A stretch of 2,257 bases of DNA. It comes from Escherichia coli (lineage in GTDB: Bacteria; Pseudomonadota; Gammaproteobacteria; Enterobacterales; Enterobacteriaceae). Made by a program: the position numbers and the translations under genes. This document shows, piece after piece, positions 1 to 2,257 of this stretch. Each line of letters starts with the position of its first letter. Positions within the stretch are counted from its first letter, which is position 1. The stretch is taken from NCBI RefSeq assembly GCF_003334335.1, contig NZ_QOWQ01000091.1; one strand, given 5' to 3'. The notes under the pieces were generated by a model. It was given only the letters and a program-made list of their open reading frames with translations, searched no databases and had not been told where the DNA came from.

Positions 1-468
1 CGTACCATTCAGAACTGGCAGGAACAGGGAATGCCCGTTCTGCGAGGCGGTGGCAAGGGTAATGAGGTGCTTTATGACTCTGCCGCCGTCATAAAATGGT
101 ATGCCGAAAGGGATGCTGAAATTGAGAACGAAAAGCTGCGCCGGGAGGTTGAAGAACTGCGGCAGGCCAGCGAGGCAGATCTCCAGCCAGGGACTATTGA
201 GTACGAACGCCATCGACTTACGCGTGCGCAGGCCGACGCACAGGAACTGAAGAATGCCAGAGACTCCGCTGAAGTGGTGGAAACCGCATTCTGTACTTTC
301 GTGTTGTCGCGGATCGCAGGTGAAATTGCCAGTATTCTCGACGGGATCCCCCTGTCGGTGCAGCGGCGTTTTCCGGAACTGGAAAACCGACATGTTGATT
401 TCCTGAAACGGGATATCATCAAAGCCATGAACAAAGCAGCCGCGCTGGATGAACTGATACCGTTATGA
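1..468 (+). CDS. nu1: Terminase small subunit Nu1 (lambda-like), 5' end outside window, 3' end truncated at a deletion junction
   Basis: Frame 1 is open from position 1 (cgt acc att cag aac tgg = RTIQNW), which precedes the ORF-track start at 31 and shows the gene enters from upstream. The translation ...IRTIQNWQEQGMPVLRGGGKGNEVLYDSAAVIKWYAERDAEIENEKLRREVEELRQASEADLQPGTIEYERHRLTRAQADAQELKNARDSAEVVETAFCTFVLSRIAGEIASILDGIPLSVQRRFPELENRHVDFLKRDIIKAMNKAAALDELIP matches lambda gpNu1 as I recall it, from about residue 17 to about residue 150. The last codons are ccg tta tga (P L stop, 460-468), whereas lambda Nu1 continues ...PGLLSEYIEQSG, so roughly 30 C-terminal residues are missing. Identity is from memory, not a search. 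Confidence 0.85.
   Translation, partial: RTIQNWQEQGMPVLRGGGKGNEVLYDSAAVIKWYAERDAEIENEKLRREVEELRQASEADLQPGTIEYERHRLTRAQADAQELKNARDSAEVVETAFCTFVLSRIAGEIASILDGIPLSVQRRFPELENRHVDFLKRDIIKAMNKAAALDELIPL
461..464. other. Deletion/recombination junction fusing nu1 (upstream) to an internal site of lom (downstream)
   Basis: Nu1-homologous sequence ends at ...gaactgatacc(g) at about 462. From about 463 the sequence ttatgagtttacggatacgctggggctggtgacg reads in a different frame (458 onward) as YRYEFTDTLGLVTSF, which is internal Lom sequence. The exact breakpoint is ambiguous by 1-2 nt (the cg at 461-462 could belong to either parent). Confidence 0.7.
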
Positions 469-895
469 GTTTACGGATACGCTGGGGCTGGTGACGTCAT
501 TCAGCTATGCAGGAGACAAGAATCGCCAGCTGACCCATTACAGCGATACCCGCTGGCATGAAGATTCCGTTCGTAACCGCTGGTTCAGCGTAATGGCGGG
601 GCCGTCTGTGCGCGTGAATGAATGGTTCAGCGCGTATGCGATGGCGGGTGTGGCTTACAGCCGTGTGTCGACTTTCTCCGGGGATTATCTCCGCGTAACT
701 GACAACAAGGGGAAAACGCACGACGTGCTGACCGGAAGTGATGACGGTCGCCACAGCAACACGTCTCTGGCGTGGGGAGCTGGCGTGCAGTTTAACCCGA
801 CCGAATCCGTGGCCATTGATATTGCTTATGAAGGCTCCGGCAGTGGCGACTGGCGCACTGACGGTTTCATCGTGGGTGTCGGTTATAAGTTCTGA
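463..895 (+). pseudogene. lom: 5'-truncated lom fragment (Ail/Lom-family outer-membrane beta-barrel protein) lacking signal peptide and native start; the ORF track reports it as 491..895 with a GTG start
   Basis: The frame opens after a TGA at 455-457 and reads YRYEFTDTLGLVTSFSYAGDKNRQLTHYSDTRWHEDSVRNRWFSVMAGPSVRVNEWFSAYAMAGVAYSRVSTFSGDYLRVTDNKGKTHDVLTGSDDGRHSNTSLAWGAGVQFNPTESVAIDIAYEGSGSGDWRTDGFIVGVGYKF, then stop TGA at 893-895. This matches the C-terminal ~150 residues of lambda Lom (about 206 aa in my recollection) with a single apparent difference (H where I recall R in QLT[R/H]YSDT). The N-terminal ~55 residues, including the signal peptide, are absent. The C-terminal aromatic residue (..GYKF) is typical of outer-membrane beta-barrels. 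The only in-frame start candidate is GTG at 491, with a weak GGGG 3 nt upstream. Confidence 0.85.
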
Positions 896-921
896 TTAGC
901 CAGGTAACACAGTGTTATGAC

Positions 922-948
922 AGCCCGCCGGTTCAGGCGGGCTTTTTT
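922..948 (+). terminator. Rho-independent (intrinsic) terminator downstream of lom
   Basis: Perfect 8-bp GC-rich inverted repeat, agcccgcc (922-929) and ggcgggct (936-943), with a 6-nt loop ggttca (930-935), followed immediately by a T-run (943-948, tttttt). It lies 27 nt after the lom stop codon. The opposite strand has no U-tract after the stem, so it is unidirectional for + strand transcripts. Confidence 0.75.
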
Positions 949-950
949 GT

Positions 951-955
951 GGGGT
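951..955 (+). promoter_or_regulatory. Putative Shine-Dalgarno sequence for stf
   Basis: ggggt located 4 nt upstream of the ATG at 960; a partial match to the GGAGGT consensus. Confidence 0.4.
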
Positions 956-959
956 GAAT

Positions 960-2257
960 ATGGCAGTAAAGATTTCAGGTGTACTGAAAGACGGCACAGG
1001 AAAACCGGTACAGAACTGCACAATCCAGCTGAAAGCAAAACGTAACAGCACCGCGGTGGTGGTGAACACGCTGGCCTCAGAAAATCCGGATGAAGCCGGG
1101 CGTTACAGCATGGACGTTGAGTACGGTCAGTACAGCGTTATTCTGTTGGTGGAAGGATTCCCGCCGTCACATGCCGGGACCATCACCGTGTATGAAGATT
1201 CCCGACCCGGTACGCTGAATGATTTTCTCGGTGCCATGACGGAGGATGATGCCCGTCCGGAGGCTCTGCGCCGTTTTGAACTGATGGTGGAAGAGGTGGC
1301 GCGTAACGCGTCCGCAGTGGCACAGAACACGGCAGCCGCGAAGAAGTCAGCCAGCGATGCCCGCACATCAGCCCGTGAGGCGGCAACCCATGCGACTGAT
1401 GCTGCAGGCTCAGCACGCGCAGCCAGCACGTCAGCCGGACAGGCCGCGTCGTCGGCTCAGTCAGCGTCTTCCAGCGCAGGAGCGGCATCAACAAAGGCCA
1501 GTGAAGCATCGAAAAGTGCTGCTGCTGCAGAGTCCTCAAAAAGCGCGGCAGCTACCAGTGCCGCTGCGGCGAAAACGTCAGAAACGAATGCGGCAGCGTC
1601 ACAACAATCAGCAGCCACTTCTGCATCCGCCGCGACCACGAAGGCGTCAGAAGCTGCCACCTCAGCCCGGGATGCGGCGGCCTCAAAAGAGGCGGCAAAA
1701 TCATCAGAAACGAGCGCAGCCTCGAGCGCCAGTAGTGCAGCCTCCTCGGCAACAGCGGCAGGAAATTCCGCGAAGGCGGCAAAAACGTCCGAGACGAACG
1801 CTAAGTCTTCTGAGACGGCAGCAGCACAGAGTGCCTCCGCAGCAGCAGACTCAAAAACAGCGGCTGCCTCATCTGCCAGCGCCGCGTCAACAAATGCCGG
1901 GCAGGCCTCAGCCAGTGCCACCGCTGCCGGAAAGTCGGCAGAAAGCGCCGCATCATCCGCTTCAACAGCCACAACGAAGGCTGGCGAAGCCACTGAACAG
2001 GCCACGGCAGCAGCGAGGTCAGCTTCCGCAGCGAAGACATCCGAAACGAACGCGAAAGCGTCGGAAACCAGCGCAGAATCCTCAAAAACGGCTGCCGCAT
2101 CGTCAGCCAGTTCGGCGGCGTCATCGGCATCATCGGCGTCTGCTTCAAAAGATGAGGCGACCAGACAGGCGTCAGCAGCGAAGGGCAGCGCCACGACGGC
2201 ATCCACGAAGGCGACAGAGGCAGCTGGCAGTGCGACGGCGGCAGCTCAGAGCAAAAG
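960..2257 (+). CDS. stf: Side tail fiber protein Stf (lambda-like), N-terminal conserved domain plus Ala/Ser/Thr-rich repeat region; 3' end beyond the window
   Basis: ATG at 960-962 opens a frame with no stop through the window end (432 complete codons), which is why the ORF track omits it. Translation begins MAVKISGVLKDGTGKPVQNCTIQLKAKRNSTAVVVNTLASENPDEAGRYSMDVEYGQYSVILLVEGFPPSHAGTITVYEDSRPGTLNDFLGAMTEDDARPEALRRFELMVEEVARNASAVAQNTAAAKKSA..., which closely matches the N-terminus of lambda Stf and related prophage side tail fibers as I recall them (the prophage tail fibre N-terminal domain). It is followed by a long low-complexity A/S/T/K/E tract with recurring K(T/S)SET(N/S)A motifs. Gene order lom then stf matches lambda. 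Confidence 0.9.
   Translation, partial: MAVKISGVLKDGTGKPVQNCTIQLKAKRNSTAVVVNTLASENPDEAGRYSMDVEYGQYSVILLVEGFPPSHAGTITVYEDSRPGTLNDFLGAMTEDDARPEALRRFELMVEEVARNASAVAQNTAAAKKSASDARTSAREAATHATDAAGSARAASTSAGQAASSAQSASSSAGAASTKASEASKSAAAAESSKSAAATSAAAAKTSETNAAASQQSAATSASAATTKASEAATSARDAAASKEAAKSSETSAASSASSAASSATAAGNSAKAAKTSETNAKSSETAAAQSASAAADSKTAAASSASAASTNAGQASASATAAGKSAESAASSASTATTKAGEATEQATAAARSASAAKTSETNAKASETSAESSKTAAASSASSAASSASSASASKDEATRQASAAKGSATTASTKATEAAGSATAAAQSK
1320..2257 (+). repeat. Degenerate in-frame coding repeats (Ala/Ser/Thr-rich tail-fiber repeat region) within stf
   Basis: The motif AAK-TSETN-A recurs at nt 1572-1589 (aaa acg tca gaa acg aat), 1782-1799 (aaa acg tcc gag acg aac) and 2034-2051 (aag aca tcc gaa acg aac), with KSSET variants at 1698-1712 and 1803-1817. 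Protein composition over this span is dominated by A, S, T, K, E. The repeats are imperfect and irregularly spaced (210 and 252 nt between the three KTSETN copies), not exact tandem copies. Confidence 0.6.

Follow-up and report, generated by a model that had tools for sequence, protein, structure and literature searches.

The side tail fibre of Ur-lambda has been resolved by Yu et al. (2025), and its gpStf is divided into a collar (residues 1-91), a linker (92-101), a proximal coiled coil (102-393) that belongs to the trimeric fibre, a hinge (394-422) and then the distal part (PMC12617516). In E. coli prophage tail fibre proteins, the name "PCoil" was given by Ghosh et al. (2012) to the Ala/Ser-rich low-complexity region that follows PfN, and PCoil lengths were found to differ by multiples of seven (PMC3368898). 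The domain, its heptad nature and its length variation in multiples of seven are already published, and the codon-level description given here adds detail and no new kind of feature. The locus under study lies in a stretch of 2,257 nucleotides from Escherichia coli (the window), in which positions 1299-2257 very probably encode the alanine/serine-rich heptad shaft of a lambda-type side tail fibre (Stf/StfR) belonging to a DLP12-like cryptic prophage.

The whole window matches E. coli chromosomes, at a median of three places per genome, and its best match is found in E. coli EC416 (locus L001; 99.2% identity over the full length). The EC416 region is a cryptic prophage of DLP12 type with the gene order quuD, essD, rrrD, rzpD, bor, ybcV, ybcW, ylcI and nohD. 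The window opens within the last of these: positions 1..468 of the plus strand are the 3' part of nohD, encoding a Nu1-like DNA-packaging (small terminase) protein, as RefSeq nohD at 5953-6468 of the EC416 locus corresponds to window positions -47..468, and the open reading frame at 31..468 falls inside this part. Fused directly behind it is a truncated lom pseudogene (458..895, plus strand) for an Ail/Lom outer-membrane beta-barrel protein without its N-terminus, annotated in EC416 as "incomplete; missing N-terminus" (6458-6895). Intact lom genes of 199 aa are found upstream of stf in loci L003-L005, and the order J-lom-stf is present in L003-L006. Because nohD is fused to the lom fragment, the prophage is without head and tail genes; in the EC416 annotation, everything from terminase-large through J is missing. 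It is doubtful that the stf copy of this DLP12-type remnant serves on a virion tail to speed up adsorption, and it may never enter a virion. Between lom and stf, a consensus scan returned a candidate terminator (922..953, plus strand), which as a pattern match consists of a GC-rich hairpin with a stem of eight pairs, seven of them GC, followed by the T-run TTTTTGTGGG.

The side tail fibre gene stf begins with the ATG at 960; on translation, its 5' 432 codons occupy 960..2257 of the plus strand, and the frame is open past the end of the window. Its counterpart in EC416 is a CDS at 6960-9923 (987 aa), annotated as "prophage tail fiber N-terminal domain-containing protein", with a tail fibre assembly gene (tfa) on its 3' side, and the window protein compared with PHROG matches tail fibre families (E = 1.7e-131). 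The N-terminal collar/attachment domain (PfN, Pfam phage_tail_N) and the linker make up amino acids 1-113 (960..1298, plus strand) by their Pfam and PDB matches: PF08400 (phage_tail_N) spans residues 1-134 of the 99.2% identical full-length homologue (E = 4.5e-71), and the collar structure deposited as "Tail fiber protein" (PDB 9e7m/9mgh) matches stf residues 1-94 (E = 6.9e-51). Further along the 987-aa homologue, Pfam finds three Phage_fiber_2 repeats (residues 462-590), and these are followed by a Collar domain match (761-808) and by a T4 gp37-like tip (744-987; PDB 2xgf, E = 5e-82). Residues 135-461 of the same homologue match no Pfam family, and the KTSETN tract falls inside this interval. 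Of the stf entries in the protein collection, many bear the label partial. Judged by sequence, the window gene belongs to the lambda Stf/prophage side tail fibre family, since every defining feature that sequence can address is present: the PF08400 collar domain, the position after lom and before tfa, and an Ala/Ser heptad region after PfN.

This region is a heptad array of 45 complete 21-nt units and a partial one (1299..2257, plus strand), with the place of the PCoil, or proximal trimeric coiled-coil shaft, of the literature. The register starts at residue 114 (nt 1299) and continues with no break to the end of the window and past it; in the full-length homologue, about three further heptads precede an AEDIASAV hinge motif. 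The heptad consensus is x-x-S-A-x-x-A, with Ala at position 7 in 44 of the 45 units, Ser at position 3 in 35 and Ala at position 4 in 32, and the spacings in every direct DNA repeat family are multiples of 21 nt. The earlier note had described a repeat of three KTSETN copies within 1560-2060. The copies do lie inside that interval, but the periodic tract extends from 1299 to beyond 2257, and its unit is not the three-copy repeat; it is the 7-residue heptad, of which at least 45 follow one another. KTSETNA is one recurring heptad type, K-x-S-E-T-x-A, with relatives KSSETSA (heptad 20, 1698..1718), KSSETAA (1803-1823) and KASETSA (2055-2075), all on the plus strand, and Glu at position 4 is paired with Lys at position 1 in all six such heptads. 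Amino-acid recurrence exceeds what column composition would give, because six heptad pairs are identical where 0.77 would be expected (P = 0.0025), and because two heptads, KTSETNA and ASSASSA, are triplicated, a recurrence of both types that never arose in 2000 column shuffles. Higher-order repeats of several heptads were not found: shuffling the order of the heptads leaves runs of two to six of them just as similar (P = 0.3-0.8).

The three KTSETN copies are encoded on the plus strand by exactly the codons first reported for them, namely AAA ACG TCA GAA ACG AAT for copy 1 (heptad 14; 1572..1589, with KTSETNA at 1572-1592), AAA ACG TCC GAG ACG AAC for copy 2 (heptad 24; 1782..1799) and AAG ACA TCC GAA ACG AAC for copy 3 (heptad 36; 2034..2051). 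All are in frame with the ORF from ATG 960, and they differ from one another at third positions only, in 3, 4 and 3 of the six codons. Self-comparison of the DNA at 1320-2257, for which few exact diagonals had been anticipated, yields nine shared 10-mers, three shared 11-mers and no shared 12-mer, whereas the protein self-comparison, where clear diagonals were expected, gives 27 shared 7-mers and, at length nine, 11 shared words, every one of them offset by a whole number of heptads. Exact repeats of more than 20 bp had been named as a sign of recent amplification; the longest exact direct repeat in 1299-2257 measures 11 nt. Long exact or near-exact head-to-tail repeats of the slippage-prone kind were not found in the tract, and the sole array returned by Tandem Repeats Finder is a 9-nt unit in 2.4 copies (2116-2137).

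Two of the inferences drawn earlier from this pattern, that the protein is under purifying selection and that the copies are old, are borne out by orthologous alleles. Compared with lambda over heptads 1-27, the window gives dN 0.099 and dS 0.43 (Nei-Gojobori), an omega of 0.23, and omega against lambda for the N-terminal domain is 0.10. Replacements relative to lambda, counted by heptad position from 1 to 7, number 9, 5, 4, 1, 8, 7 and 1; positions 4 and 7 are thus under the strongest constraint, in line with what a/d positions of a core would show. Each copy has also kept its own codons, copies 1 and 2 in lambda and all three in K-12 stfR. Copy 1 is identical at 18 of 18 nt to copy 1 of lambda and to K-12 stfR, copy 2 agrees with copy 2 of lambda at 17 of 18 nt although the alleles overall are only 83% identical, and copy 3 differs by at most 1 nt in stfR, L003 and L004. 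In the allele of strain 405, which is more distant, copy 3 differs from that of the window by five synonymous changes and no replacement, and the adjacent heptad is changed at 10 of its 21 nt. These comparisons support purifying selection together with an age of each copy beyond the split of these alleles.

Descent of the copies from one another is less well supported: synonymous identity between them is at the random level. Between copies, 3-4 of the six codons differ against 3.6 expected from independent draws on the codon usage of the tract itself, and across the array the in-register codon identity for the same amino acid is 0.271, against 0.257 in shuffles (P = 0.06). The synonymous sites are saturated and are therefore uninformative on common descent of the three copies. 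It is possible, although not the reading to which we give most weight, that the KTSETNA heptads arose independently by convergence and are no copies by descent, in which case their synonymous differences would be silent on age. Both codon comparisons agree with such an origin, as does the observation that no multi-heptad diagonal beats shuffled heptad order; the constant pairing of Lys 1 with Glu 4 suggests structural coupling, and K-x-SET-x-A heptads recur in varying numbers in other alleles, in Fels-1 and in phage 9g. A saturated ancient duplication, however, predicts the same data, and the 9-residue identity AAKTSETNA reaches beyond the coupled positions. For the KTSETN copies, sequence alone does not tell an ancient duplication from convergence towards a favoured type of heptad.

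The earlier note had also inferred that the tract is more stable than a recent tandem amplification would be, and comparison among alleles gives this a mixed outcome. The layout is widely conserved: of 5426 complete E. coli genomes, 3593 carry the 959-nt tract in collinear form at 88-99% identity, which among the matches listed means alignment in one piece with the length unchanged. K-12 stfR matches it over all 45 heptads with 94.3% identity and no indels, and the same 45-heptad layout is retained across alleles that have diverged by 6-12%. Against this stand in-register indels of 7, 15, 15 and 16 heptads. Among 120 homologues the heptad run varies from 27 to 49. Measured tract lengths of 226, 233 and 338 residues differ by 7, 105 and 112, and a single length of 320 departs from this pattern; homologue P0024 is off by 18 residues, no multiple of seven. 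Some alleles part from the window immediately after heptad 24, which is KTSETN copy 2.

The four indels were defined by heptad-level alignment relative to the window, and their junctions by alignment at the nucleotide level. In the L005 allele, window heptads 32-38 are missing (7 heptads), and the 8-nt repeat GCCGCATC, which occurs on the plus strand at 1947..1954 and again at 2094-2101 with a spacing of 147 nt or 7 heptads, is the exact microhomology at the junction. The L004 allele is without window heptads 14-28 (15 heptads); window heptads 13 and 28 meet at TGCC within its own heptad 13, which is an exact chimera of the two. In the L003 allele, window heptads 20-35 are missing (16 heptads); the left edge is formed by KSSETSA, the window's heptad 20, and the other side by the third KTSETNA, with the microhomology GCAGCGAA given an L005-like parent. 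Lambda is without window heptads 28-42 (15 heptads), and there the flanking heptads are too diverged for the junction to be located. Junction microhomologies of 4-8 nt are therefore present at three of the four indels. Most genomes carry several stf-region paralogues, so that partners for recombination between prophages are on offer. Within one copy the tract is without a substrate for RecA-type recombination, yet it is length-polymorphic through rare in-register events.

As to structure, AlphaFold2 run on a single chain predicts helix over residues 98-430, with pLDDT of 70-86 across most of the tract; the chain is folded back at 187-194 and 278-284 and pTM is 0.27, so the model speaks for helicity only. 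That the tract is a trimeric coiled coil and serves in the fibre we infer from the literature on homologues. Three chains would wind into a parallel alpha-helical coiled coil, in which the small Ala/Ala pair at heptad positions 4 and 7 would form the core, flanked by Ser at position 3; Ala at position 4 in 32 of 45 units and at position 7 in 44 of 45 is what a core of the Ala-zipper type calls for, conservation being the guide to where the core lies. The rod would form the proximal half of the fibre, between the N-terminal collar that docks to the tail and the distal receptor-binding modules. With the usual rise, about 0.15 nm for each residue, a heptad would lengthen the reach by about 1 nm, and the number of heptads might in this way tune fibre length; Lys 1 and Glu 4 could form an i/i+3 charge pair. 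On the DNA side, the amino-acid pattern is held by purifying selection while the synonymous sites have drifted to saturation, so that, with no exact repeat above 11 nt, RecA-type recombination and slippage have nothing to act on inside a single gene copy. Changes in length are rare and take the form of in-register deletions or insertions of whole heptads at microhomologies of 4-8 nt.

A more far-reaching proposal is that the K-x-S-E-T-x-A heptads are selected "staple" layers, regenerated convergently, and that the microhomology indels represent selected tuning of fibre reach. We think this improbable; if it held, the staples could be, for example, inter-helix Lys-Glu pairs in an otherwise featureless Ala/Ser core, and the reach of the fibre would be matched to cell-surface depths such as those of O-antigen or capsule.

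The non-repetitive DNA could itself have been the target of selection, with synonymous codons diversified as an adaptation that suppresses recombination or slippage. The longest exact repeat of just 11 nt and the use, in the tract, of every Ala codon (four) and every Ser codon (six) are in keeping with such scrambling, but when codons were permuted with the protein and the codon counts held fixed, the longest exact repeat in the shuffled sequences came to 12.9 +/- 1.9 nt (P = 0.26 for 11 nt or less), and they shared 14.7 +/- 6.4 10-mers against the nine observed (P = 0.21). Scrambling is no greater than neutral saturation would give, so there is no sign of selection for recombinational stability, and we regard selected scrambling as very unlikely. 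An even slighter chance attaches to the antisense ORF at 1457..2206 (minus strand, 249 codons) being genuine and constraining, through its own coding, the synonymous sites of the tract: the frame is long, and lambda carries an annotated hypothetical protein, orf206b, at the same place, but the antisense stop-free stretch, 262 codons, compares with 263 +/- 56 codons in the synonymous shuffles. As the shuffles give equally long stop-free stretches, we rejected this "shadow" ORF as a gene and take it for a by-product of codon composition, with orf206b the same artefact in lambda. A recent tandem amplification, or slippage at a locus of the contingency type, is all but excluded as an account of the tract, since the variation in heptad number among homologues, which might suggest it, is set against the lack of any shared 12-mer, the single short array of 2.4 units, and a 45-heptad layout that persists in thousands of genomes and across the diverged alleles.

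The tract is thus best read as a shaft whose protein is held by purifying selection over saturated synonymous sites, and as such it is an example of a long, low-complexity structural repeat that is periodic in its protein and non-repetitive in its DNA. Neutral saturation of synonymous sites suffices for periodicity of this kind to exist without DNA repetition, so that selected scrambling is unneeded. Such a tract nevertheless changes in length, by way of rare events at microhomologies that keep the register. The practical value of these observations is small. Annotation is affected in that Pfam does not see the tract, which is also the source of a spurious antisense ORF, as with lambda orf206b; the BLAST low-complexity filter masks the tract fully, so that tblastn with it alone gave no match among phages, and the N-terminal domain was used instead as the anchor for phage searches. 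For phage engineering, the natural alleles of 27-49 heptads indicate that shaft length tolerates change by whole heptads.

"KTSETN" itself gave no hit in the literature. The N-terminal collar domain is common to the window stf, lambda (Ur-lambda) Stf and K-12 Rac StfR. In lambda as in the window the gene follows lom, and window heptads 1-27 align one-to-one with lambda Stf at 83% nucleotide identity; lambda differs in that heptads 28-42 of the window are absent from it, and the window stf, unlike that of lambda, sits in a DLP12-type remnant that has lost its head and tail genes. Among more distant carriers of the N-terminal domain, Fels-1 has 33 heptads, Stx2a_WGPS8 has 18 and phage 9g at least nine. 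The shaft of T7 gp17 is likewise a trimeric coiled coil placed between tail-attachment and distal binding domains, but the match to its residues 172-272 (PDB 7boz) is marginal (E = 0.021) and probably compositional, and its N-terminal domain is unrelated. Alanine-zipper or Alacoil coiled coils, such as the Lpp-56 trimer of Braun lipoprotein, carry Ala at the core a/d heptad positions; Lpp-56 is not known to be related in sequence to the window tract. The collagen-like fibres EPclA/B of E. coli O157 prophages have, as the window does, an Ala/Ser-rich heptad region (PCoil) directly after PfN; the EPcl PCoil, however, is shorter (about 16 nm), richer in Glu and followed by collagen triple helices (PMC3368898), whereas the window-type array has no fewer than 45 heptads, with Phage_fiber_2 repeats and a gp37-like tip after it.

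A mosaic breakpoint coincides with the second KTSETNA copy (window 1782-1802), one of three occurrences of a recurring heptad type in the coiled-coil shaft of the side tail fibre protein Stf. A group of homologous alleles, for example P0069 and P0094 together with the database matches H78 and H79, runs collinear with the window as far as this very heptad (the H78 and H79 matches span query 1-503), and past it alleles of this type carry another heptad series as well as other distal domains. In a further allele, P0024, 18 residues (AQSKSTAESAATRAETAA) are missing close to where the tract ends, whereas every other length difference is a multiple of seven; this gap could reflect either a tolerated stutter adjoining the hinge or an error of assembly. 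Within the tract (window 1299-2257), TCA is the commonest serine codon (28/78) and clusters at heptad position 3 (15/36), and codon identity in register was slightly higher than in shuffles permuting synonymous codons (0.271 versus 0.257, P = 0.06); the two may be a faint trace of an ancestral heptad codon pattern.

Upstream, the C-terminal two-thirds of lom is fused directly behind nohD, a small-terminase homologue, at window 458-495. This direct joining marks the deletion from the DLP12-type prophage of the entire block running from the large terminase to J, that is, the head and tail genes. The junction and the adjoining stf gene are present in only 35 of 5426 complete genomes when a match must cover 80% or more of the window. 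The interval separating the lom fragment from the start codon of stf holds a strong predicted terminator-like hairpin, with seven GC pairs and a T-run (window 922-953), given which stf expression would require either read-through or a promoter of its own; a search of window 400-1100 for a sigma-70-like promoter found none.

The majority of database entries for the Stf protein carry the label "partial" and stop at the edge of a contig. Apparently, short-read assemblies break within stf or immediately downstream of it, probably because the gene is shared among several prophages in each genome.

Inside the heptad tract the minus strand holds an antisense ORF of 249 codons (window 1457-2206), which is a compositional artefact, since synonymous shuffles open equally long antisense frames (263 +/- 56 codons). 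The equivalent antisense ORF in lambda is annotated as orf206b, a hypothetical protein.
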